From Candidatus Moraniibacteriota bacterium (lineage in GTDB: Bacteria; Patescibacteriota; Minisyncoccia; Moranbacterales; UBA9337), in contig JALSQF010000010.1 of assembly GCA_026985555.1 (NCBI GenBank), forward strand, positions 26,112-90,111: 64,000 nt of DNA. The letters are read 5' to 3'. Below the pieces are notes generated by a model. That model was not told where the DNA came from. It searched no databases and saw only the letters and a program-made list of their open reading frames with translations. This document shows positions 1,962-64,000 of the stretch, one piece after another. How positions within the stretch are numbered: position 1 is the first letter of the stretch; each line of letters begins with the position of its first letter. The translations under genes and the position numbers were made by a program.

Positions 1962-2822
1962 TCATTTTTTTAAATGACTTCTCATTTTTTTAAGTAGCTC
2001 TATATCTTGTTTAATTTTATCGTACCTAGTTTCTAGAATCATATTAATCTTTTGTTTGTGGGCAAATCTAACAATATTTTGAAAAGCTTTTTTTCCTATT
2101 TTTCCTTCTCCTATATGAGCATGACGATCTATATGACTACCACAATCTGACAAGCTATCATTAGCGTGGATTACTTTTATTTTATTTAATTCTACTTCCT
2201 GTTTAATTTTAGAGAGTGTTTTTTTCCAATCTTTCCAATTGTATCCTGAAGCAAATGAATGTTGAGTATCTAAACAGATGCCACCTAAAGCTGAGTGATT
2301 AACTTTTTCTAAAATATAGTTAAGCTCTGAAAATCTATCTCCTATGATAGAACCTGATCCAGCAGTATTTTCTAAAAGCAGTTGTGCTTTTCCCTTATAA
2401 TTTTTTAATGTTTTTTGAAGCATTTCAATTGTTTTTTTTATACCCTTTTTTTCTCCTAAATCTTTAGTAGAACCTAAGTGAGTAATGACATATTTTATTT
2501 TTAATGAATTAGCTATAGCTAATTCTTCTTGAATAGTTTTTAATGATCCATAACGAATGCGATTATTACTAGAAGCAAAATTTATATAATAAGGGGAATG
2601 AATGTAAGTATCTCTTATATTATATTTAATAACGTTTCTTTTAAATTTATTAGCGATTTCAGAATTTATTTCTCTTTTTTTTCCTCCCTGAGGAGAACGA
2701 GAAAAAATTTGCATTATTTCAGCACCTATTTCAGCTGCACGTTGAGGAGCTTTTTCTATGCCACCAGCAATAGAAATATGGCAACCAATATATGGATAAA
2801 AAGAGTTAGATTTCTTTTTCAT
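1962..2822 (-). CDS. nfo: Endonuclease IV (AP endonuclease, TIM barrel)
   Basis: The N-terminus GCHISIAGG and the overall Nfo-like metal-binding His/Asp/Glu pattern; 286 aa. Confidence 0.75.
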   Translation of the reverse strand: MKKKSNSFYPYIGCHISIAGGIEKAPQRAAEIGAEIMQIFSRSPQGGKKREINSEIANKFKRNVIKYNIRDTYIHSPYYINFASSNNRIRYGSLKTIQEELAIANSLKIKYVITHLGSTKDLGEKKGIKKTIEMLQKTLKNYKGKAQLLLENTAGSGSIIGDRFSELNYILEKVNHSALGGICLDTQHSFASGYNWKDWKKTLSKIKQEVELNKIKVIHANDSLSDCGSHIDRHAHIGEGKIGKKAFQNIVRFAHKQKINMILETRYDKIKQDIELLKKMRSHLKK

Positions 2823-2843
2823 ATTTATTGTTGTTAATTCTAT

Positions 2844-3803
2844 TTAAATAATTTTCCACTGATTATTTTTTTCTAAAATTCTTCCTTTAATAGTAAAGCC
2901 ACTAGCTAATTTATGACCTCCTCCTCCTAGTTTATGAGCAATAGCAGAAACATCTATGCCTTTATATTCTTCACTGCGTAAACTTCCTTTTATAGTGAAA
3001 TCGTCTTTTTGAGTTAATACTAAGGAAAAACGAGTTCCAGGTATAGTGTTTAAAATAGAAGCTATTTCTCCAATATCTTCTGCCTTAGCTTTACATTCTT
3101 TTAAATCAGCTTGAGTAATAACGGTTGTAATCATTTTATTTTTAGGATTAATTTGAGCTTTATCAAAAGCGCGTCCCCAGAGTTTTAAAGTAGAAATCTT
3201 TTTGTTAGCAAAAGTTGAATTAATAATTTTAGGCAAAGACGCCCCTCTCCTAATCAATTCTGCTACTGCAGACATAACTTTTGCGGTGGTATTGGTATGT
3301 TGTAGATTTCCCGTATCACCTAAAATTCCTGTTAAAATTAAAGAAGCTATTTGCGGTGTTATGGGGGCATGTACAAAGGTTAGAAAATCAAAAACTATTT
3401 CACAAGCAGAGGAATAGGAAGCATCAACTATATTAATATCTTCCTGAATAGAAATGTCAGGATGATGATCAATAATAACAGTAACTGTATTTTGAGGCAG
3501 TTTGTTTTTAATTCTATTAAATCCACGTTCAACACTATCGCAAGCAATAACTGCCTCGTATTGATTAAAATCTATTTTATCAGCTGGTAATAATTCTTTT
3601 GGTTTAATTGTTTTTTGCAGATAATTAGGCAAGGGAGTAAAACAAGCTACATCAGCTTTTTTATTTAATCCTTCTAGGTAATATTTTAAAGCAAAATTAC
3701 TTCCTATAGCATCACCATCTGGATCATCATGAGCGAAAAGAAGAATATGAGAAGCTTTTTTGATTACATATTGAAGCGTTTTGAATTCTGATTGAAATTT
3801 CAT
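2844..3803 (-). CDS. nrnA: DHH-family phosphoesterase (NrnA-like oligoribonuclease/pAp phosphatase)
   Basis: DHH motif (IIDHH) and a C-terminal DHHA1-type GGGH motif; 319 aa. Confidence 0.65.
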   Translation of the reverse strand: MKFQSEFKTLQYVIKKASHILLFAHDDPDGDAIGSNFALKYYLEGLNKKADVACFTPLPNYLQKTIKPKELLPADKIDFNQYEAVIACDSVERGFNRIKNKLPQNTVTVIIDHHPDISIQEDINIVDASYSSACEIVFDFLTFVHAPITPQIASLILTGILGDTGNLQHTNTTAKVMSAVAELIRRGASLPKIINSTFANKKISTLKLWGRAFDKAQINPKNKMITTVITQADLKECKAKAEDIGEIASILNTIPGTRFSLVLTQKDDFTIKGSLRSEEYKGIDVSAIAHKLGGGGHKLASGFTIKGRILEKNNQWKII

Positions 3804-6722: not shown

Positions 6723-7025
6723 TTATTCTAAAAGACTGAAGAAAAAATTAATAAATTTTAAAATAAATTTTCTGGTTATAAATAAAAATATCTCAAAAAC
6801 CAGAAAAATCAAAAAAGAATTTATACAAGAAGTTTTTCCCATAACAAGAAAAATGATTGTTAGCGGGAAACTAGTTGTAATTGCAACTAGTACAGCATAA
6901 GGAAGATAAAGAATAAATCCTATAACGCCGTCCCTTATGCTTACATTCATTTCTATTTTGTTCGCTATAAACAGAAACATAGGTAGCCATGCTATGATGG
7001 CTAAAAAAATTTGACAATCAGTCAT
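6723..7025 (-). CDS. Small integral membrane protein, hypothetical
   Basis: 100 aa with three hydrophobic segments; no identifiable domain. Confidence 0.35.
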   Translation of the reverse strand: MTDCQIFLAIIAWLPMFLFIANKIEMNVSIRDGVIGFILYLPYAVLVAITTSFPLTIIFLVMGKTSCINSFLIFLVFEIFLFITRKFILKFINFFFSLLE

Positions 7026-10463: not shown

Positions 10464-10499
10464 GGGGTCATTAAAGGGGTCATTAAAGGGGTCATTAAA
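10464..10499 (+). repeat. Tandem 12-bp direct repeat GGGGTCATTAAA x3
   Basis: Three exact head-to-tail units abutting the stop codon of rpmE. The same unit recurs at 57571-57598. Confidence 0.9.
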
Positions 10500-19845: not shown

Positions 19846-19883
19846 TTTCTGGCTATTTAAATATCCATTTAAATAGCCAGAAA
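19846..19883. repeat. Palindromic repeat element, copy 1 (TTTCTGGCTATTTAAAT-ATCCAT-TTAAATAGCCAGAAA)
   Basis: Perfect 14-nt arms, intergenic position, flanked by T- and A-runs. Confidence 0.9.
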
Positions 19884-20028: not shown

Positions 20029-20850
20029 ATGAAAAAGATTATTTTGTTATTATTTTTATTTCTAGTCCAGGGTGGTTTTGTTGCATCTAGTTATTCTGGG
20101 CAACCAGAACAAAAAGAAGTAGTAAAGATGGAAGGAAATAATTTGATTATCTATCAAATTATTTCCTTGAAAATAGAGAAAAAACGTTTTTTAAATATAT
20201 TTTCACCAGAAGCATTGGCTCTAGTAACACAAATAACACAAACGCCAGAAATAAATTTAAAAAAAATTTATATGCTGGCGGAGGGGAAAGCCGAAAAGAT
20301 ATTATTTTCTCAAAAATTAGAGAAAATAATATTTGGATTTCCTTTGAAATATAAACTGAGAAATAATTACCTGTTCTTAAACAAAAGAACAGGTAGAATA
20401 GAAAAGAGGATAGAAATTGGAGAAGAGGATGCGTCAATTCTAACTCTAATGGCTGTATTGTCTATTCTTTCTCCGGGTGTATTTATATTTATGTATTATT
20501 TGCATTGCAAAGACTATTATTGCAAGCAAAATCAGATTATTTGGTTGTGTTGTTTATTACTTGTGGGCGCATTACTGAGCGCCTTATTTGGATTATTTGG
20601 TGGCGTTATTAGTTTGGTAGTGCCACTGTTTCTAGGTGCAGTGTTGGGATATGTTGCAGAATTCTATTTAAAAGAATTAAATGGAATTCTGTTTGGAGTA
20701 TATATGACATTATTTATTTATTTGCCAATCAGTTTTTTAGTTGAAAAAATAGGATGGCAAAATGCCATGGCCACTCAATATCTGCTAATGCTATTGTTAA
20801 TTTGTGTTATTGCTATAGCATTGGCGCAATTTATAAAAAAAAGAAAATGA
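20029..20850 (+). CDS. Integral membrane protein, hypothetical (signal peptide plus multiple TM)
   Basis: Strong RBS (aaggaggaaaagATG) and a hydrophobic profile. Confidence 0.45.
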   Translation: MKKIILLLFLFLVQGGFVASSYSGQPEQKEVVKMEGNNLIIYQIISLKIEKKRFLNIFSPEALALVTQITQTPEINLKKIYMLAEGKAEKILFSQKLEKIIFGFPLKYKLRNNYLFLNKRTGRIEKRIEIGEEDASILTLMAVLSILSPGVFIFMYYLHCKDYYCKQNQIIWLCCLLLVGALLSALFGLFGGVISLVVPLFLGAVLGYVAEFYLKELNGILFGVYMTLFIYLPISFLVEKIGWQNAMATQYLLMLLLICVIAIALAQFIKKRK

Positions 20851-32206: not shown

Positions 32207-32281
32207 TCCGCGGTAGCTCAGTGGTAGAGCAGGTGGCTGTTAACCACTTGGTCGGGGGTTCGAATCCCTCCCGCGGAGCCA
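32207..32281 (+). tRNA. tRNA-Asn (anticodon GTT), CCA encoded
   Basis: Cloverleaf folded by hand: acceptor TCCGCGG/CCGCGGA, anticodon loop CTGTTAA, T-loop TTCGAAT, discriminator G. Confidence 0.85.
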
Positions 32282-32423
32282 AATTGTATGTTGTTGTTCT
32301 GCCGCCTCGGCGCTTCATGCTTCGGCAAACAAATTCGCTAGTATTTTCTAAAGATTTTTAAAAGAAATAGAATTTTTTTCATTTTCGCAAAAGATTTATT
32401 ATTTGATAGTTTTAAAAGATTCA

Positions 32424-32454
32424 ACTCGTTTGGTTTTTAACCAGACGAGTTTTT
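32424..32454 (+). terminator. Rho-independent terminator hairpin (part of the left direct repeat flanking the GC-rich gene)
   Basis: ctcgtttgg-ttttta-accagacgag plus ttttt. A second copy with compensatory base changes lies at 33334-33366. Confidence 0.7.
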
Positions 32455-32455
32455 C

Positions 32456-32493
32456 TTTCTGGCTATTTAAATGGATATTTAAATAGCCAGAAA
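32456..32493. repeat. Palindromic repeat element, copy 2
   Basis: TTTCTGGCTATTTAAAT-GGATAT-TTAAATAGCCAGAAA; the centre is inverted relative to copy 1. Confidence 0.9.
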
Positions 32494-32570
32494 GAATTAG
32501 TTTTACAAATCTATTTATTATAAAAAACTAATAAGAATCTAATATTTAAACAATACAAAAATGCAAGGTA

Positions 32571-32599
32571 TTGACAAAAAAGAAAAAATAAGCTATAAT
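32571..32599 (+). promoter_or_regulatory. Consensus sigma-70 promoter (TTGACA-N17-TATAAT) driving the GC-rich ORF
   Basis: Exact -35 and -10 hexamers with a 17-nt spacer. The upstream context aggtattgaca is shared with the promoter at 19942. Confidence 0.7.
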
Positions 32600-32662
32600 G
32601 GTCGGTTAGTTTGAGTGAAGTTCTTTAAAAATTTTTTAAAAAATTTAACAAAGGAGGAAAAA

Positions 32663-33325
32663 ATGAAAACAACAGAAAAAAGAAGAGAGCTGGTGAACAT
32701 GGTTAAAGAAATTCTCCTTTCTAAAGGAGAGGAGAAAAAAAATTCCCTTCTTGCTGCCAAGGTGGCAGTGAAGATGGGGAAAAAGAAGCTTGACAAAGAG
32801 GTCATCTCCATTGTCAGGCAGGCCAGGGCCGAATTGGCTTACGCCAAGGAGGCCAGGGAGACTATTCTTAATTTTTGTCAAAAAAACAGGGACTTCAGCA
32901 GGAGTCCCTACAAATTAGCGGATGCGGTTTTTCGGACAGAGCATCCGCACTGTCCCTTTTCGGCTGTTATGGCAGAGGCGAAAGCCCTTCTGGCCGACTG
33001 GAAGAAGGATCTGGAAATCTTTGGTAAGGATTGGCGCCGACGTGTCAATTATGCCAAGGATATTTTGGAGGAAGAAAATAGTGTTGCCAAAACGAACGAG
33101 TTGTATGCGGTTCGTTTTGACGATAATCCCCTTTTGCGTCAGAAGGTTTTTCGAATGGCGCTGAGGGAGTTAGAGAGAAATGCTTCTGATTTTAAGGCCA
33201 GAGTATCTCAAATAAAAATCCCTTCTCCTCCAAGTGGGGAGGGAAAAAAGAAAAAGAAAATAAAAAAGAAAAAAAGGCGTCAACGTGACGCCAAAATTCG
33301 CAACAATGTGTTGCGAATGTTTTAA
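32663..33325 (+). CDS. Hypothetical alpha-helical protein encoded by a compositionally foreign (GC-rich) gene; AT-rich lysine-rich C-terminal tail
   Basis: Perfect RBS (AAGGAGG-N7-ATG at 32663). Codon usage (AGG, GCC, AAG, CTG) is unlike every other gene in the window. The ORF-track start at 32615 is probably an upstream extension. Confidence 0.6.
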   Translation: MKTTEKRRELVNMVKEILLSKGEEKKNSLLAAKVAVKMGKKKLDKEVISIVRQARAELAYAKEARETILNFCQKNRDFSRSPYKLADAVFRTEHPHCPFSAVMAEAKALLADWKKDLEIFGKDWRRRVNYAKDILEEENSVAKTNELYAVRFDDNPLLRQKVFRMALRELERNASDFKARVSQIKIPSPPSGEGKKKKKIKKKKRRQRDAKIRNNVLRMF

Positions 33326-33333
33326 AAAAATCA

Positions 33334-33366
33334 ACCCGTCTGTGGTTTTTAACCAGGCGGGTTTTT
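33334..33366 (+). terminator. Rho-independent terminator hairpin (right direct-repeat copy)
   Basis: cccgtctgtgg-ttttta-accaggcggg plus ttttt. Confidence 0.65.
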
Positions 33367-33367
33367 C

Positions 33368-33405
33368 TTTCTGGCTATTTAAATGGATATTTAAATAGCC
33401 AGAAA
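33368..33405. repeat. Palindromic repeat element, copy 3
   Basis: Identical in sequence to copy 2. Confidence 0.9.
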
Positions 33406-33513
33406 AAGAGTTGGTTTTCTATTTTTTATATTTATTATATTTTTTTATTTCAGCAGTTGATTTTTAATAATAAGAAAGTTAAAATTAAAAGGATTTTTTA
33501 ATTAAAATAATTT

Positions 33514-34194
33514 ATGTCAAATAATAAGAAAAAAATACTGTTAGGGTTAACAACTACTTCGGGATCTAATTGGCGAGAAAAAATTGAAGAAATTAAAAAA
33601 TACAATATTCAAGATATAGCTTTGTTTTTAACAGGTATTCAAAAAAAGGAAAGAGAAGAATTGTATTATCTTTTAGAAAAAACAAAAATTGATTTCATTT
33701 ATCATATTCACATTAGAAGTGATATGGCAGAAAAAGAATTAGAGTATTTAGTAAAGAAATACAGAGTGCAAGCTTTGAATATTCATTCTCAACGTTCTCG
33801 GTTTGCTTTTCCAAATTTTCCAACAAGATTTAAAAAAATTACTTATATAGAAAATACAGTCGTAGTTCCAACTTTTCAAGAATTAAATCAATTTGCGGGG
33901 GTGTGTATAGATTTCTCTCATTGGGATGTGTATAAATTTTTTCACTGGAAAGAATATCAAAGAATGAAAAGAGTAGTTAAACAATATCCCATAGGATGTT
34001 GCCATGTTTCAGCGGTGCGTTATTTTAAAAAAATTAGAATTTCTTTTGATAAACATAAAGCCAGACGCCAACAAGAATTTGATTACTTAAAAAAATATAA
34101 AAATTATTTACCTCAATACATTAGTTTAGAATTAGAAAATAGTTTTCAAGAACAATTAGTTTATAAAAAATATATAGAATCTTTTTTAAACTAA
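33514..34194 (+). CDS. Hypothetical protein
   Basis: 226 aa with no recognisable motif; only His/Cys-containing blocks (FIYHIHIRSD, IGCCHVSAV). Confidence 0.4.
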   Translation: MSNNKKKILLGLTTTSGSNWREKIEEIKKYNIQDIALFLTGIQKKEREELYYLLEKTKIDFIYHIHIRSDMAEKELEYLVKKYRVQALNIHSQRSRFAFPNFPTRFKKITYIENTVVVPTFQELNQFAGVCIDFSHWDVYKFFHWKEYQRMKRVVKQYPIGCCHVSAVRYFKKIRISFDKHKARRQQEFDYLKKYKNYLPQYISLELENSFQEQLVYKKYIESFLN

Positions 34195-34289
34195 TAATTT
34201 TTAAATAAAAAAAATAAAAAATTATTATACAAAAGGTTGCTTTTTGTTTTTTTTATGCTACTCTATAACAAATTAATCTTATTAAAATT

Positions 34290-34604
34290 ATGTTTGATCC
34301 AGGTCCCAGTGATTTTAATGTGCTCATCTTTTTTTTAATTATTTCCTTTATTATTTCTATTTTGATTTATTCTTTTTTTAAAAAAATGGATTGGGCTTTT
34401 TTTTCTTTTTCTGTTTTGAGTAATGTTAGTTTTTATATTTTATCAAACTCTCTAATGTTTGTTGAAAATGATGCAATTTGGATTATGAAATTTACTTTTA
34501 ATTATTGGCCATGGTTAAATGGTTTTCTTTTAATCTTTTTAATTATTAAGTGGTTTAGAAAAAGGAGGCTGAACAGTAAAGAAAATGGGAAAAAATTTTT
34601 TTAG
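34290..34604 (+). CDS. Small membrane protein, hypothetical
   Basis: 104 aa with 3 hydrophobic segments. Confidence 0.35.
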   Translation: MFDPGPSDFNVLIFFLIISFIISILIYSFFKKMDWAFFSFSVLSNVSFYILSNSLMFVENDAIWIMKFTFNYWPWLNGFLLIFLIIKWFRKRRLNSKENGKKFF

Positions 34605-37206
34605 AATTTTATTTATCTTTCTTTTTTTATTAGCTCCTGAAGTTTCTTGGTTAGAATCTTTCGCTCAACCATATTCTCAATATTCTCAACCAATTATAAT
34701 TTCTTTAAATACGGTTTGGCATAAAGAAGATAAATTGATTTTTCAAAGACCGATAGTTATAGTTAATGGCGCCACTTTAACTATTGAAAAAGGAACTCAA
34801 ATTATTTTTAAAAATAAAAAAGACTTTAGAGTCCCTCTTGGCATTAAGGTTCTGAAAGGGAAAATAATTGCTCAAGGAGAAACTCAGTCCAAAATTATTT
34901 TTCTTTCTCAAGATAAAACTCCTTTTAGCCTTTCCATAGAAAGCAAAGAACAACAATCTTTTTTTCGCTATGTAAAAATTATTGGCGGAGGATATCAATT
35001 AGCTTTTCATAGCCATAATTCTAATTTTAATTTTTTTTCTAAAGCTTACGCTTTTAGGGGTATCCTAGGGCAAGCAGCTTTGGAAGTTAGGGGTGGAAAA
35101 ATTAAAGTAGAAAATACAGAGTTTTTAAATAGCCATTATGCAGATGTAGAAACAGGAATAGGAACAGAATATGATAAGGAAAATCAAGAATTGAAAAATG
35201 TTTATTTACCTCAAGTAACCATTGTGAATAGTAATTTTTCTTTTACACCTGCTCTTGTAGGTAATCAATGTAGAGAGTATAAGGAGATGTTAGGAAAGAA
35301 TAATCCTCAAGAATGTTCTCAAAGTGTTTTTTTAAAAGATAATTGGTATGGTTTTTCTCAAGAGGAAAAAAAGGAAAAGTTTAAATTGCAAGGAGACTAT
35401 TTAAAAAAGGGTTCTAGAAAAAGTAGTTTGATTTTAGATCCAGTGGTTTTTATTCCAGGAATTTTAGGATCAGATTTTAATAGAGAAGGAGAATTAAAAA
35501 TAGATCCCATCTGGCATCAATACGATGATCTACTTCAATCATTGCAAAAAAATGGTTTTCCAGAAAACAAAAAATTATTTCTTTTTCCTTATAACTGGCG
35601 TTTTAAGAATGAAGTTAGCGCTGCGCTTTTAAGAGAAAAGATTAAACAAATTCAAAAAGAAACACAAATTTCTAAAGTAGACATAGTGGCTCATTCTATG
35701 GGCGGATTAGTAGCGCGAGCCTATGCGGAAAAAAAAGACTATGCTAATAATATTGATCAAATGATTTTTTTAGGAACGCCTCATCAGGGAGCGCCAAAAG
35801 CTTTTTTAATGTGGGAAGGAGGAGAGGGCTATCAATTTTTATTGGCTAGGCATTTGCGTCATGAAGCAGAAGAAAATAATTATGATGAATTGTATCAATA
35901 TGTTCAAGAAAAAACTCCTTCTGTTAAAGAACTACTGCCAGTTTATAGTTATTTGTTTGATCTGGAGAAAAATAATCTTGAAAAATATCCTCAAGGTTAT
36001 CCGGTTAATTCTTTTTTAGAAAAATTAAACGCAACGGATAATTTATATAAATTAGAAAAAATAAATATAATTAATATTATAGGAAAAACTAGGAAAAATA
36101 ATACCATTGGTAAAATTAGAGTAAATAAAAGTATTTCTTTTGCTGAAAAAAAATGGGTAGATGGTTATCCAGAAAAATTTGATGATAAAAAAACAGATAG
36201 AGGTTTAGAACTTGTTTCTGGTGATGGGACTGTGCCCTTTCAAAGCGCTGAAAAAATTCCATTTAATAAAGAAATAATTTTGGAAACTACACACACTAAT
36301 CTACCTACTGAAGCTCAGTGTGAAATTTTTTCAGAACTAACTTTATTAGAAAAAAATAAGTGTCAATTTATTGATAATTGGCATAGTCCTAACTGGTTAT
36401 TATTTCATATTTTTTCTCCCGTAGATGTCCAAGTAATAGATCCTTTAAAAAGGAAAATTGGAAAGGATTTTTCTACAGGGAAAATTTTTAATGAAATTTA
36501 TGGAGCTTATTATAGTGGATATAAAACAAAGAAAGAATTCTTAGCTATTCCTTTTCCTCAAGAAGGGAAGTATAGAATTTTAACTCAAGGAGTAGGTCAA
36601 GGAAAATATAGAATTGAAGTAGCTTATCTTTCTCAAAATAAAAACGGAGAAATAATTGATAGCCAAATTATTTATCAAGGAAAAACTTCTCTTCAAGAAG
36701 AAAATCAACAGGTTTTTTTCTTGAAAGATAATTTGTTATCAAAAGAAGAAACCAATCAAAAAGATTATCAAGAAGAGAACAAAGATAATATCAATCATAA
36801 TGTGGACAATAATGTTATTTTAGAAAGTTTAAATAATTCTTCGGTGTCTCAAAACAAGCACCAAAAGAAAGATTCTTCTGATTCTCAAAAACAAAAAAAG
36901 AAAAACCCAAAAAAAAATTTAAAATCAAAGAAAATAATTCAATCAAAAAAGAAGCTATCTTTCTCTAAAAATAAAACTAATTATTCGGAAAAAATAAAGG
37001 AAGAGAATTATCAGAGTAAAGAAAATCTAGTTACAGAAAAGAAAGTGAAAGGAGAGGAAAATAATATTTATAAAATCAAAAAAAATAATTCGCAGAAAAC
37101 AAAAAAGAATTTTTTAAAAAGATTATTACTAATTATAGGTATAGTAGTTTTAACTCTTATAATTTTTGGATGGAAAAAAATATTTGGAAAAAAAACCAAA
37201 GAATAA
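34585..37206 (+). CDS. Large secreted/surface-anchored alpha/beta-hydrolase (lipase/esterase) with a lysine-rich spacer and a C-terminal TM anchor
   Basis: Signal peptide, a beta-rich N-terminal region, an oxyanion-hole-like PVVFIPGILGS, the nucleophile elbow AHSMGG (GxSxG), a K-rich low-complexity tail and a terminal hydrophobic helix (LLLIIGIVVLTLIIFGW). Confidence 0.65.
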   Translation: MGKNFFRILFIFLFLLAPEVSWLESFAQPYSQYSQPIIISLNTVWHKEDKLIFQRPIVIVNGATLTIEKGTQIIFKNKKDFRVPLGIKVLKGKIIAQGETQSKIIFLSQDKTPFSLSIESKEQQSFFRYVKIIGGGYQLAFHSHNSNFNFFSKAYAFRGILGQAALEVRGGKIKVENTEFLNSHYADVETGIGTEYDKENQELKNVYLPQVTIVNSNFSFTPALVGNQCREYKEMLGKNNPQECSQSVFLKDNWYGFSQEEKKEKFKLQGDYLKKGSRKSSLILDPVVFIPGILGSDFNREGELKIDPIWHQYDDLLQSLQKNGFPENKKLFLFPYNWRFKNEVSAALLREKIKQIQKETQISKVDIVAHSMGGLVARAYAEKKDYANNIDQMIFLGTPHQGAPKAFLMWEGGEGYQFLLARHLRHEAEENNYDELYQYVQEKTPSVKELLPVYSYLFDLEKNNLEKYPQGYPVNSFLEKLNATDNLYKLEKINIINIIGKTRKNNTIGKIRVNKSISFAEKKWVDGYPEKFDDKKTDRGLELVSGDGTVPFQSAEKIPFNKEIILETTHTNLPTEAQCEIFSELTLLEKNKCQFIDNWHSPNWLLFHIFSPVDVQVIDPLKRKIGKDFSTGKIFNEIYGAYYSGYKTKKEFLAIPFPQEGKYRILTQGVGQGKYRIEVAYLSQNKNGEIIDSQIIYQGKTSLQEENQQVFFLKDNLLSKEETNQKDYQEENKDNINHNVDNNVILESLNNSSVSQNKHQKKDSSDSQKQKKKNPKKNLKSKKIIQSKKKLSFSKNKTNYSEKIKEENYQSKENLVTEKKVKGEENNIYKIKKNNSQKTKKNFLKRLLLIIGIVVLTLIIFGWKKIFGKKTKE

Positions 37207-37225: not shown

Positions 37226-37275
37226 TTTCTGGCTATTTAAATATCCATTTAAATGGATATTTAAATAGCCAGAAA
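37226..37275. repeat. Palindromic repeat element, copy 4 (longest form, perfect 44-nt palindrome core)
   Basis: ctggctatttaaatatccatttaaatggatatttaaatagccag. Copies 1-3 look like centre-deleted versions. Confidence 0.9.
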
Positions 37276-48608: not shown

Positions 48609-48878
48609 ATGTATTATCTAGATTCTTTTTTAAAGTGGTTTCAAAGAGGGGAAATTGGCTTAAGTTTGGTTATTTTAATAACTTTAATAGTTATTTTAAT
48701 AATCGTATTAATAAAAAACGAACAAAAACATTATCAATCAAAAAAAGATTTTTTCTGTCCTGCTTGCGGACAAAAATTAATTTTGAATAACGAAATTTTT
48801 ATTTGTCCGAAGTGTGGATGGAAGGAAGAATTGATAATTATTAAAGGACTGTTTTCTAACTTTAAAAAAGAAACTTAA
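48609..48878 (+). CDS. Small membrane-anchored zinc-ribbon protein, hypothetical (occupies the slot where secY normally follows L15)
   Basis: Strong RBS (gaggaggaggaagaaATG), a single TM helix, CPACGQ...CPKCGW, and a terminator directly downstream. Confidence 0.5.
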   Translation: MYYLDSFLKWFQRGEIGLSLVILITLIVILIIVLIKNEQKHYQSKKDFFCPACGQKLILNNEIFICPKCGWKEELIIIKGLFSNFKKET

Positions 48879-57570: not shown

Positions 57571-57598
57571 CATTAAAGGGGTCATTAAAGGGGTCATT
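57571..57598 (+). repeat. Tandem 12-bp repeat GGGGTCATTAAA (about 2.7 units), second locus
   Basis: ccacattaaaggggtcattaaaggggtcatt. Same unit and orientation as 10464-10499; 34 bp upstream of the AbrB-like ORF. Confidence 0.9.
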
Positions 57599-58760: not shown

Positions 58761-58830
58761 CCAATTATCTCTAAAAATCAGTATTTAGTATTTAAAAGTT
58801 AAAAAATAATTTTTACAAAAATTTTATTCT
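58761..58830. repeat. Left arm of an imperfect inverted-repeat pair of about 75 bp (partner at 63769-63846)
   Basis: ccaattatctctaaaaatcagtatttagtatttaaaagttaaaaaataatttttacaaaaattttattct; by eye about 85% reverse-complement identity to the partner, including an exact 21-mer. Confidence 0.8.
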
Positions 58831-59750
58831 TGTTTCTCTTGTTTTTTGTTTTTTTTGTTATGAAACTTTTGATGAATTTTTTTTAATTGCTGATTGGTAA
58901 TGTGAGTGTAAATTTGAGTAGTGGTAATAGAAGAATGGCCTAACATACTTTGCACGCTTCTGATATCAGCACCATTAGATAAAAGATCAGTGGCAAAGCT
59001 ATGTCTTAAAGTATGAGGATGAACATCTTTAGTGATACCAGCTTTAGTAGCGTAATATTTAACAATTCTTTGTATACTTCTAGATGTTAAACGTAAATTA
59101 TCTTCCTTTTTATTTTTAGTTAGACGAATAAAAAGAGCTTCATCTATATCAGTCCGCTGTTGCAAATATTTTAAAAGCGCTTGACGGGCAGTTTCCGAAA
59201 GGAAAACTAGTCTTATTTTCCCGCCTTTTCCTTTAACACTAAACTCTTGTTTATCTAAATTAATTTGATCGCGATTTAAATTAACTAGTTCGGAAACACG
59301 CAAACCAGTGGAGAAGAGTAATTCTAAAATTGCTCTATCACGTAAACCTTTAAAGCCGTTTTCATCGGGAGATTGAAGTAATTTTTCTAATTCATCTTTG
59401 GTTAGAAATTCAATTTCTTTTTGTGGATTTTTACCTACTTCTATTTTTTCTGCTGGTAAAGTTTTTATATCACGAACGGCCAGATATTTTAAAAAATTGC
59501 GTAAAGCAATAATGTGATAATTTTGAGTAGATTTTTCTAGTTTTTTTCCTTTTTCATCTTCAAAACGATTTAAATACAAACGATATTGTCTTACTTTTTC
59601 TAGGGTGATATCTTCTGGTTGGCTAATTTGAGTAAAATCTAAAAAACGTTTTAAATAATGATGATAATTTTCTATGGTTTTAAGGGAACGGTTTACTTCT
59701 ATTTCTAAATGCTCTAAAAATTGATTAACTAATTTTTCTAAAGTAGTCAT
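58824..59750 (-). CDS. xerC: Tyrosine site-specific recombinase (XerC/XerD family)
   Basis: N-terminal core-binding domain; catalytic R...HxxR...Y region (HTLRHSFAT, GHSSITTTQIYTH). The stop codon lies inside the left inverted-repeat arm. Confidence 0.8.
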   Translation of the reverse strand: MTTLEKLVNQFLEHLEIEVNRSLKTIENYHHYLKRFLDFTQISQPEDITLEKVRQYRLYLNRFEDEKGKKLEKSTQNYHIIALRNFLKYLAVRDIKTLPAEKIEVGKNPQKEIEFLTKDELEKLLQSPDENGFKGLRDRAILELLFSTGLRVSELVNLNRDQINLDKQEFSVKGKGGKIRLVFLSETARQALLKYLQQRTDIDEALFIRLTKNKKEDNLRLTSRSIQRIVKYYATKAGITKDVHPHTLRHSFATDLLSNGADIRSVQSMLGHSSITTTQIYTHITNQQLKKIHQKFHNKKNKKQEKQE

Positions 59751-63011: not shown

Positions 63012-63768
63012 AAATTTAAATTTTAAATAAATATATTTTTTGTAATTTTAATTAATTTATTTATTTAGTTAAAACTAAATATTATATTATATCATAATAT
63101 GTAATATGTATAGTATTATAAATTTTTTTATATATATTTATATATGAAATTACATAAACCATATACATACTTGTATAAATCATATACATATATGTATATG
63201 ATTATATAACAAATAGTATGTTGTAATGAAATAATAAAAAGAAAAAACAAAAAAGGAAATAAATTAAATATAGAAACATAAATATATAATATAAATATTT
63301 AATATATATCAAAATGATAACTAAATTTAATTTTATATATTTTTTATAATATAAAAAATATATAAAATTAAAAAACAAAACTTAATCTAATAAAAAACAA
63401 GTAAACAAAAAATTTTTATATACGTTACATGTATAATCACAATAAAGATATTTAAAACAAATAAAAGATAAAAAATAAAAGTAATTTTATTTGTGTAAAT
63501 GTCGTCCAATCTACATTGTGCGACACATATAATATAAGTATCTATGTATGTATATATAAATATATACGAAAGCAATAAGTAAAAATATAAACAAGCCATT
63601 TATATATTTATTTGTATATATATAAATATTACCCTATTCCCTTTTTTAAAACTCTTAAAATTAAAAAAAATTTAAAAGATTAAAAGTGAAGTTTTATTTT
63701 TAATTAAAATTAATTAGAATAAAAAAAATTATTATTATATAGAAAATAGAAAATAAAAAAACAAAAAT
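63012..63768. repeat. Extremely AT-rich low-complexity tract with short TA/CATA-type micro-repeats
   Basis: Runs of atatacata and tatgtatatg and poly-A/T; only a dubious 70-aa antisense ORF. Confidence 0.6.
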
Positions 63769-63846
63769 AAAAATAAAATATTTTTTGCAAAAAATATTTT
63801 TTAAATTTTAAATACTAAATACTGATTTATTTTTAGAGATAATTTA
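63769..63846. repeat. Right arm of the inverted-repeat pair (partner of 58761-58830)
   Basis: aaaataaaatattttttgcaaaaaatattttttaaattttaaatactaaatactgatttatttttagagataatt. Confidence 0.8.
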
Positions 63847-64000
63847 TATTTTATATATTTAATTTAAATTCTAGTAATGAATAATAATTGAGTTAAAAGA
63901 AGTCCTATTATATCAAAATTGTCTAAATATTTCATTTGATTTTTGTTTAATATTAATAAGACTGAATAATTATTTATTTTTTGATGAGATGGAATCAATA

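Follow-up and report, generated by a model that had tools for sequence, protein, structure and literature searches.

The stretch analysed here, hereafter the window, comprises 64,000 nucleotides of core chromosome from a metagenome-assembled genome (MAG) of a Candidatus Moraniibacteriota bacterium (assembly GCA_026985555.1, contig JALSQF010000010.1) of the candidate phyla radiation (CPR; Patescibacteria), and is matched by contig JBPMRF010000020.1 of assembly GCA_054022635.1. Directly 3' of the tRNA-Asn (GTT) gene at 32207-32281 on the forward strand (ARAGORN; Rfam tRNA, 72 bits) lies a putative transcription unit. Its coding sequence (CDS), at 32663-33325 on the same strand, is GC-rich and dense in predicted hairpins and encodes an all-helical protein of 220 amino acids with a lysine- and arginine-rich tail, which belongs to an unnamed family of about ten members. 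Housekeeping genes surround the locus (priA, lepB, an aminoacyl-tRNA synthetase gene, ybeY, ftsA, ftsZ and the tRNA-Asn gene), three lineage-restricted genes followed by tuf and the S10 operon are found on its 3' side, and pilB, infB, trmD, dnaG, rpoD and dnaJ are located more distantly in the window. The CDS is present at the same site in independent assemblies, namely two MAGs and contigs of the 0.2-1 Mb class, and the same insert junctions are found in both MAGs and in these contigs.

The open reading frame (ORF) extends over 220 codons without interruption, while the remaining sense frames hold 8 and 11 stops, and a stop-free run of at least 220 codons arose in 0 of 20,000 shuffles. With 43.9% GC versus 27.8% for the window, the CDS ranks top of all 663-bp segments (z about 4), and its GC content at third codon positions (GC3) of 0.484 has to be compared with 0.169±0.032 (maximum 0.255) in the 63 other ORFs (z 9.8). 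As first and second codon positions are only mildly raised (z 1.3 and 0.8), within 1.3 standard deviations, the excess sits at synonymous positions. These GC and codon statistics bear out the original prediction, made from the DNA letters, that the gene is a compositional outlier. The accompanying statement on AGG, GCC, AAG and CTG codons had the right direction, but their being essentially absent from other genes was overstated: expressed as the fraction of the codons for the respective amino acid, AGG reaches 32% in the CDS versus 8% in the other genes of the window, GCC 50% versus 9%, AAG 41% versus 16% and CTG 21% versus 3%.

Equally, the predicted expression signals are present. The promoter, leader and ribosome-binding site (RBS) module at 32497-32662 on the forward strand contains a -35 element TTGACA (32571-32576), a -10 element TATAAT (32594-32599) and AAGGAGG (32651-32657). 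The perfect TTGACA-N17-TATAAT at 32571-32599 is the sole instance in 64 kb (0.02 expected), and AAGGAGG, which occurs 7 times in the window versus 0.76 expected, is placed 5 nt 5' of the ATG, so that the A/T-rich start of the CDS lies behind a perfect RBS. The gene is monocistronic in layout, and its signals suggest strong expression.

An unnamed family of GC-rich genes

An exhaustive phmmer search over 1.84 billion representative proteins returned four distant homologs in addition to the copy in a sister MAG (GCA_054024795.1, locus L001; 99.3% identical to the window), and a profile search brought five more homologs (nine matches), while an earlier word-indexed search had given one. About ten relatives are found among roughly 15 billion proteins searched, each at a different locus, as befits an accessory gene. 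The family members span 165-221 amino acids, most of them 207-221, share 36-43% identity with the product of the CDS and align end to end with in-frame gaps only and with 28 invariant columns. The Lys/Arg-rich C-terminal tail is kept in all members that reach it, one being cut short by an insertion sequence (IS) and another being incomplete. A chimeric or ameliorated 3' end, as had been proposed on account of the host-like composition of the last codons, is thus wrong: the tail is both old and conserved. The ratio of non-synonymous to synonymous substitution rates (dN/dS) is 0.33 when the CDS is compared with its sister-MAG copy, while three closer relatives give 0.16-0.20 among themselves. 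According to the ORF statistics, the family alignment and dN/dS, the CDS is a real protein-coding gene.

No significant match to the 220-amino-acid protein was obtained with the Pfam, PHROGs, PADLOC and NCBIfam profiles or among the PDB sequences. A single-sequence AlphaFold2 (AF2) model reached a mean predicted local distance difference test score (pLDDT) of 61 and was replaced by a model built from the multiple sequence alignment (pLDDT 77.5, predicted template modelling score 0.60), which shows ten helices and agrees with the all-helical protein foreseen from the sequence. Foldseek searches of the model versus PDB and BFVD gave no significant match. Equally, a scan of viral contigs added no further family member, and a scan of JGI metagenomes returned only one contig, which was already known. 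The family is therefore very rare, unnamed and without a detectable sequence or fold relative. An internal three-fold repeat of the protein was considered and rejected, as only R1-R3 are alike, and weakly. A helix-turn-helix (HTH)-like motif, AKLAVKFGG...VRQA, can be seen in the protein; our guess from the basic tail, this motif and weak matches is that the product might be an abundant nucleic-acid-binding protein.

In the window the gene follows ftsZ and tRNA-Asn. This context differs from those of the homologs at loci L087 (after xseA, a Bro-N gene and xseB), L093 (between a histidine-kinase fragment and an ISL3 transposase gene) and L085 (after a WecG-like gene). At L093, the ISL3-family transposase gene (1380-2567) overlaps the 3' end of the homolog and truncates it, an arrangement repeated in three assemblies. 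At L087, the Bro-N domain gene (2268-3107) lies between xseA and xseB just 5' of the homolog; the Bro-N domain is associated with phage and mobile-element genes. As the family is patchy, occupies a different locus in each genome and has alleles that recombine, it is mobile within the clade.

Promoter, leader, CDS and terminator are kept together between L087 and L092/L093 (z 6.7 upstream and 8.8 downstream), and the heritable unit is therefore the whole expression cassette there. A leader of about 190 nt with three hairpins is conserved at L087 (4086-4305), L093 (560-775) and the 5' ends of L092/L096. Its first hairpin reads GTTCYCTCTA...TAGAGGGARC, and the hairpin adjacent to the RBS shows changes on both arms between L092 and L093/L096 with pairing kept. 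Rfam gave no match on the homologous loci including the leaders. A possible 6-codon leader ORF was seen in the leaders of L087, L092, L093 and L096; at L085, the DNA upstream of the homolog (499-800) holds a strong RBS with a 4-codon ORF (MEIL), after which come GC-rich hairpins and a stem resembling a terminator, in an attenuator-like arrangement.

The composition of the CDS recurs throughout the family. Every homolog with fetchable DNA is a gene of 41-51% GC in flanks of 25-43% GC (mostly 25-37%). At L092 and L096, the downstream flanks are near-identical, while the alleles stand at a synonymous divergence (dS) of 1.2 with a GC3 of 0.52 and 0.49, respectively; L093 is a mosaic allele of the two. 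The original prediction had read the GC-richness as a recent acquisition, and such an import from a GC-richer donor, integrated beside tRNA-Asn as a small island and not yet ameliorated in composition, would be in line with the extreme GC3 value, the patchy family distribution and the GC enrichment even of unpaired third positions. However, all examined homologs are GC-rich within AT-rich DNA, GC3 is kept at about 0.5 across a dS of 1.2, and a GC-rich donor lineage was found neither among the roughly 15 billion proteins nor in viral contigs or metagenomes. Orthologues of like composition at this very site across the lineage had been named as the sign of an old conserved gene; homologs of like composition do exist, but at other sites. 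It takes fewer assumptions to suppose that the gene has long been resident, with GC3 actively maintained, than that it was recently imported again and again, and the GC-richness looks like a maintained family trait, not like the fading imprint of a recent transfer.

Flanking repeats and mobility

The unit is bracketed by two direct repeats of about 87 bp on the forward strand, each with a terminator hairpin and a palindrome. Copy 1 at 32409-32496 (repeat search) contains the terminator-like hairpin T1 (32423-32451, forward strand; terminator scan), an 11 bp stem followed by a T run, which likely ends the tRNA-Asn/ftsZ transcript, and the palindrome P1 (32453-32496) with perfect 20-bp arms and the loop GGAT. 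Copy 2 at 33319-33408 overlaps the last two codons and the stop of the CDS and contains the terminator hairpin T2 of the CDS (33333-33363, forward strand), again before a T run, and the palindrome P2 (33368-33405) with perfect 17-bp arms and the same loop; the following gene has a promoter-like site (33457-33485) 55 nt downstream of P2. The copies are 91-92% identical in blastn with two indels, and their 3' 49 nt, palindrome included, are identical. In the repeat alignment the T1 and T2 stems are set apart by one compensatory change of both partners (U-A to C-G) and by two single changes that still allow wobble pairing, so that the direct repeats and their compensatory stem changes exist as described at the outset. 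A GC-rich hairpin (TTGTTcTGCCG...CGGCAAACAA) is present at 32294-32332, 13 nt 3' of tRNA-Asn, with two substitutions in the sister MAG.

The repeats are, on the other hand, not ends specific to the cassette, since the palindrome also lies upstream of gene 20029 and of tuf. This dispersed 44-bp palindrome, CTGGCTATTTAAAT-N4-ATTTAAATAGCCAG with a conserved AGAAAGAATTRGTTTT tail, occurs at 19849-19880, 32459-32490, 33371-33402 and 37231-37270, as three exact matches and a nested double copy versus 0 expected. The copy at 19849-19880, with identical arms and an inverted loop, lies upstream of the promoter-like site of gene 20029, and the nested double copy at 37231-37270 upstream of that of tuf. 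All four copies are found in one orientation 55-125 nt upstream of promoter-like sites on the forward strand, a uniform position that suggests a regulatory or insulating role; the palindrome may be an insulator, a terminator or a protein-binding site. In the L092/L096 lineage another palindrome, of 46 bp, is present or absent at one spot and also precedes the promoter at L093; palindromes of this kind thus act as insertable elements in their own right. A RAYT (REP-associated tyrosine transposase, REP denoting repetitive extragenic palindrome) or IS200-type gene was not found within the 64-kb window.

An integration targeted to the tRNA gene, as had been proposed, is not borne out. While the tRNA-Asn gene does adjoin and direct repeats stand on both sides, the last 23 nt of tRNA-Asn have no second copy in the window, even when up to 3 mismatches are tolerated, and no tRNA-derived attachment repeat is thus found. 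The genes in the vicinity (ftsA, ftsZ, the tRNA gene, the CDS itself and three further genes) include none of the recombinase type, and the single ORF with a Phage_integrase domain in the window is Xer-like and lies 25 kb off (58824-59750). The insert measures merely 0.9 kb, its flanking repeats are made of a native dispersed palindrome, and the homologs with flanks (L085, L087 and L093) are not situated beside tRNA genes. Together with the composition kept across the family, these observations render the recent import of a GC-rich island distinctly unlikely.

Another process might have created the flanking repeats. A circle of 0.9-1.2 kb, made of one terminator-palindrome unit, the promoter and the gene, could integrate by Campbell-type recombination at the terminator-palindrome unit with the help of a host recombinase, similar to IMEX-like elements, which are mobile elements using host Xer recombinases, or to integron cassettes. 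Such a process would account for the flanking direct repeats here (87 bp) and at L085 (58 nt on either side of the gene, 88% identical), for the identical 49-nt core followed by diverged arms, for the joint conservation of promoter, leader, CDS and terminator in L087 and L092/L093, for the different locus in each genome and for the presence or absence of a different palindrome at one spot in L092/L096. However, the unit has no linked recombinase, its repeats when read by eye lack the attC core motifs (RYYYAAC / GTTRRRY), the palindrome precedes promoters of core genes such as tuf too, and L087 has no clear flanking repeat. Equally, neither an empty site nor a circular junction was seen in the contigs examined. 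Among 185k species genomes, the search for an empty site retrieved 80 ftsZ relatives (up to 79% identity) with a different gene order, the nearest of them labelled Moraniibacteriota; the order likewise differs at the closest D226 homologs (up to 62% identity), and the contigs with the exact D226 protein that extend upstream of it all carry the gene among the matches listed. The lack of an empty site is thus due to synteny being lost beyond the sister MAG and to every long contig carrying the gene. Short Logan contigs of 923 bp had been considered as circles, a reading that was rejected: their ends overlap by no more than 11 nt and lie inside the multi-copy palindrome, as is expected of a repeat-induced break of the de Bruijn assembly graph, not of a circle. 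Integration of a mini-circle is accordingly rated as unlikely.

Predicted hairpins in the coding RNA

The CDS carries at least 13 predicted hairpins along its whole length, among them the two 3' palindromes noted at the outset, which are real (33276-33292 and 33296-33318). The sense RNA of 32700-33240 folds with -205 kcal/mol versus -161±6 for dinucleotide shuffles (z -7.4), the antisense RNA with a z of -3.4, and G·U contributes 16% of the predicted pairs. Synonymous-codon shuffles, in which protein and codon counts are kept and synonymous codons are permuted, gave a folding z of -3.2 to -9.1 for all seven family members tested, whereas seven of eight control genes ranged from -1.0 to +2.1; the eighth, gene 20029, was an outlier at -8.75. 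In four of five members, structure is stronger in the sense than in the antisense strand. The hairpin sequences all differ, their positions mostly differ between distant members and pairs of the minimum free energy (MFE) structures are barely shared. As each copy is highly structured with specific pairs not conserved, the structure turns over. Compensatory changes picked by eye were dismissed as support for a conserved fold; in light of the placement test discussed below they are anecdotes. In the literature on CPR bacteria, no description of GC-rich, hairpin-packed genes of such kind was found.

Strong folding of a GC-rich segment within an otherwise AT-rich genome is a textbook sign of a structured non-coding RNA, and with short 923-bp contigs in existence the insert might also be regarded as an assembly chimera. 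Rfam 15 at gathering as well as permissive thresholds gave, however, the tRNA as the sole match in the window and thus no RNA family. The ORF is non-random, starts A/T-rich behind a perfect RBS and belongs to a conserved protein family with in-frame indels and a dN/dS below 0.35, and identical junctions recur in both MAGs and the 0.2-1 Mb contigs. A large non-coding RNA with an incidental ORF, or a chimera, is therefore hardly credible.

An all-gene scan of the first 660 nt at most of each ORF of the window versus synonymous shuffles identified four outliers, 20029-20850 (z -13.2), 32663-33325 (z -8.9), 48609-48878 (z -8.8) and 6723-7025 on the reverse strand (z -5.3), with all other ORFs at -4.4 to +1.9 and no correlation between structure z-score and GC3 across genes (rho about 0). 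Gene 20029-20850 on the forward strand codes for 273 amino acids without a Pfam match, has signal-peptide as well as membrane-protein character by eye and shows perfect 11-16-bp stems. Gene 6723-7025, with an upstream region to about 7135, codes for 100 amino acids, again without a Pfam match and hydrophobic and membrane-protein-like by eye. The fourth gene, at 48609-48878 on the forward strand, encodes an 89-amino-acid zinc-ribbon protein between ribosomal-protein genes on one side and a 901-amino-acid ORF on the other; its sense strand is far more strongly folded than its antisense strand.

Of the 17 substitutions that separate the CDS from its copy in the sister MAG, 15 cluster within the 88 nt of 32965-33052 on the forward strand, including 8 of 9 amino-acid changes (codons 102-130), and five clustered substitutions jointly turn a weak stem into an 8+7-bp hairpin in the sister. 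The cluster fits a template-switch mutation or a gene-conversion patch. Divergence between the two genomes is uneven in general, with 35 differences per 500 bp at 34000-34500, 24 at 36000-36500, 19 synonymous and no non-synonymous differences in ftsZ and about none in priA, and this patchiness suggests frequent recombination patches. The creation of hairpins by template switching is a documented mechanism that concerns RNA hairpins (Mönttinen & Löytynoja 2022, PMC8794818).

The hairpins might be a neutral by-product without a function of the RNA structure, with template-switch (quasi-palindrome) mutations piling up in weakly constrained, highly transcribed accessory genes and being purged from core genes. 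Along these lines, pairs are not conserved beyond chance, the hairpin-dense CDSs are three genes without a Pfam match (20029, 6723 and 32663) and a small zinc-ribbon gene, the perfect stems of gene 20029 look young, and one stem is perfected in the sister MAG (L001) by several nucleotide changes that lie close together. Against this account, the trait is seen in every one of the seven members tested despite up to about 60% protein divergence, a dN/dS of 0.16-0.33 is not very relaxed, the GC excess is left unexplained, and the sense strand is mostly favoured over the antisense strand, an asymmetry that transcription-linked C>T changes could mimic. On balance a neutral origin is possible, though doubtful.

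Three of the four hairpin-dense genes also share upstream sequences. Promoter, leader and RBS of the CDS and of gene 20029 are homologous over approximately 145 nt (local score 68 versus 25.8±3.7, z 11.3), as are those of genes 20029 and 6723 (z 6.9), while the three products are unrelated. An undescribed class of self-contained Moraniibacteriota expression cassettes can be imagined, composed of the palindrome, the shared promoter and leader and a hyper-structured cargo ORF with functional hairpins. At least three candidates would be present in the window (6723-7025, 20029-20850 and 32663-33325), the hairpins would give RNase-resistant, long-lived or dual-function RNA or single-strand transfer intermediates, and cassettes would move or swap alleles by recombination at terminator-palindrome units. 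Such a class is a speculation that is given a low probability.

Two observations elsewhere in the window are recorded. About 1 kb of non-coding DNA after tRNA-Val (63012-63950) has 11-15% GC, short tandem repeats and a predicted folding z down to -9, and perfect tandem copies of one 12-mer (GGGGTCATTAAA or a rotation of it) occur in two far-apart intergenic regions (10464-10499 and 57571-57598).

Interpretation and comparison with known systems

The interpretation preferred here, with moderate confidence, is that of an accessory, clade-mobile and apparently highly expressed gene of an unnamed family that as a whole maintains the GC excess and the hairpin load. Neither is lost at synonymous saturation, and both are thus regarded as maintained features of the gene. 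The unit would run from a promoter that matches the sigma-70 consensus perfectly, through a short A/T-rich leader containing AAGGAGG and the 220-codon ORF, to an intrinsic terminator. The hairpins would provide a heavily base-paired, long-lived mRNA in an AU-rich transcriptome and might arise and turn over via template-switch-type mutations, while the GC excess may be increased further by GC-biased recombination between alleles. Insertion might have occurred by Campbell-type recombination at the approximately 87-bp terminator-palindrome unit, with which the repeat layout is compatible.

Several observations weigh against this interpretation. Third positions predicted to be unpaired have a GC content of 0.28-0.43, about twice the host norm; the GC excess thus exceeds what RNA structure by itself can account for, and part of it may be foreign or stem from GC-biased gene conversion between alleles. 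Gene 20029 is equally hairpin-dense at 30% GC, so that a high GC content is no precondition for hairpins. The predicted pairs of the partner survive the substitutions between relatives no better than they survive substitutions of the same type placed at random (z about 0), and the non-conservation of pairs also fits a neutral mutational origin of the hairpins without RNA function. Finally, the -10 element of the sister MAG reads TATAAC (window position 32599); two strains of 99.3% identity thus differ in the perfect promoter, and maximal expression is not fixed.

A gene of anomalous composition is usually taken for a recent horizontal acquisition. The present family keeps a GC3 of about 0.5 in genomes with a GC3 of about 0.2 through synonymous saturation; with GC3 maintained and synonymous sites arranged into hairpins, the usual inference fails here. 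Coding sequences whose predicted folding surpasses that of their synonymous shuffles by 3-13 standard deviations lie well beyond the other ORFs of the window (-4.4 to +1.9) and would, if the hairpins are functional, point to unrecognized selection at the mRNA level or to a hairpin-generating mutation process in reduced CPR genomes. An unnamed family without a fold relative and with maximal expression signals is likewise worth pursuing in structural and functional studies of CPR bacteria.

Among known phenomena, template-switch hairpins (PMC8794818) share the clustered multi-nucleotide changes that perfect a stem and the turnover without conservation of pairs. Compared with the RNA hairpins treated in that work, the hairpins here fill protein-coding sequence and the GC excess goes beyond template switching. 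Integrase-mediated islands associated with tRNA genes resemble the locus in the compositionally deviant insert directly 3' of a tRNA gene and in its direct-repeat bounds. They are unlike it in that an integrase is missing here, the repeats are not tRNA-derived, the insert is confined to 0.9 kb and one gene and the homologs are not linked to tRNA genes. Integron cassettes and clusters of attC sites without integrase (CALINs) are similar in the single ORF, the imperfect palindromes in direct orientation and the varied loci. However, attC sites have RYYYAAC / GTTRRRY cores, and the ORF of an integron cassette is promoterless with the integrase IntI nearby, while the present unit has its own consensus promoter, no IntI in the window and no attC cores, and its palindrome also stands before core genes.

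Palindromes such as REPs, bacterial interspersed mosaic elements (BIMEs) or miniature inverted-repeat transposable elements (MITEs) are matched by the 44-bp palindrome with identical arms at four intergenic loci in 64 kb and by the presence or absence of another palindrome at one site in a related lineage; the missing RAYT-type transposase in the window and the fixed place before promoters set the present palindrome apart. Obelisk-type or RNA-phage-like RNAs of about 1 kb code for a helical orphan protein of about 200-220 amino acids and are heavily base-paired, the Obelisk RNA being rod-shaped. The locus is like them in the unit of about 1 kb, the helical orphan protein and the RNA predicted to be heavily base-paired, but the present unit is chromosomal DNA with a sigma-70 promoter and terminators and has local hairpins instead of a rod, and the exhaustive protein searches returned members of its own family only. 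Propagated ('mobile') promoter modules, finally, occur upstream of unrelated genes, and the approximately 145 nt homologous between the CDS and gene 20029, and between genes 20029 and 6723, upstream of unrelated products correspond to such a module. Unlike a propagated module, the promoter core is common to a distant family member in another genome (L093, 36 of 47 positions), and it may rather be a clade-typical strong promoter.

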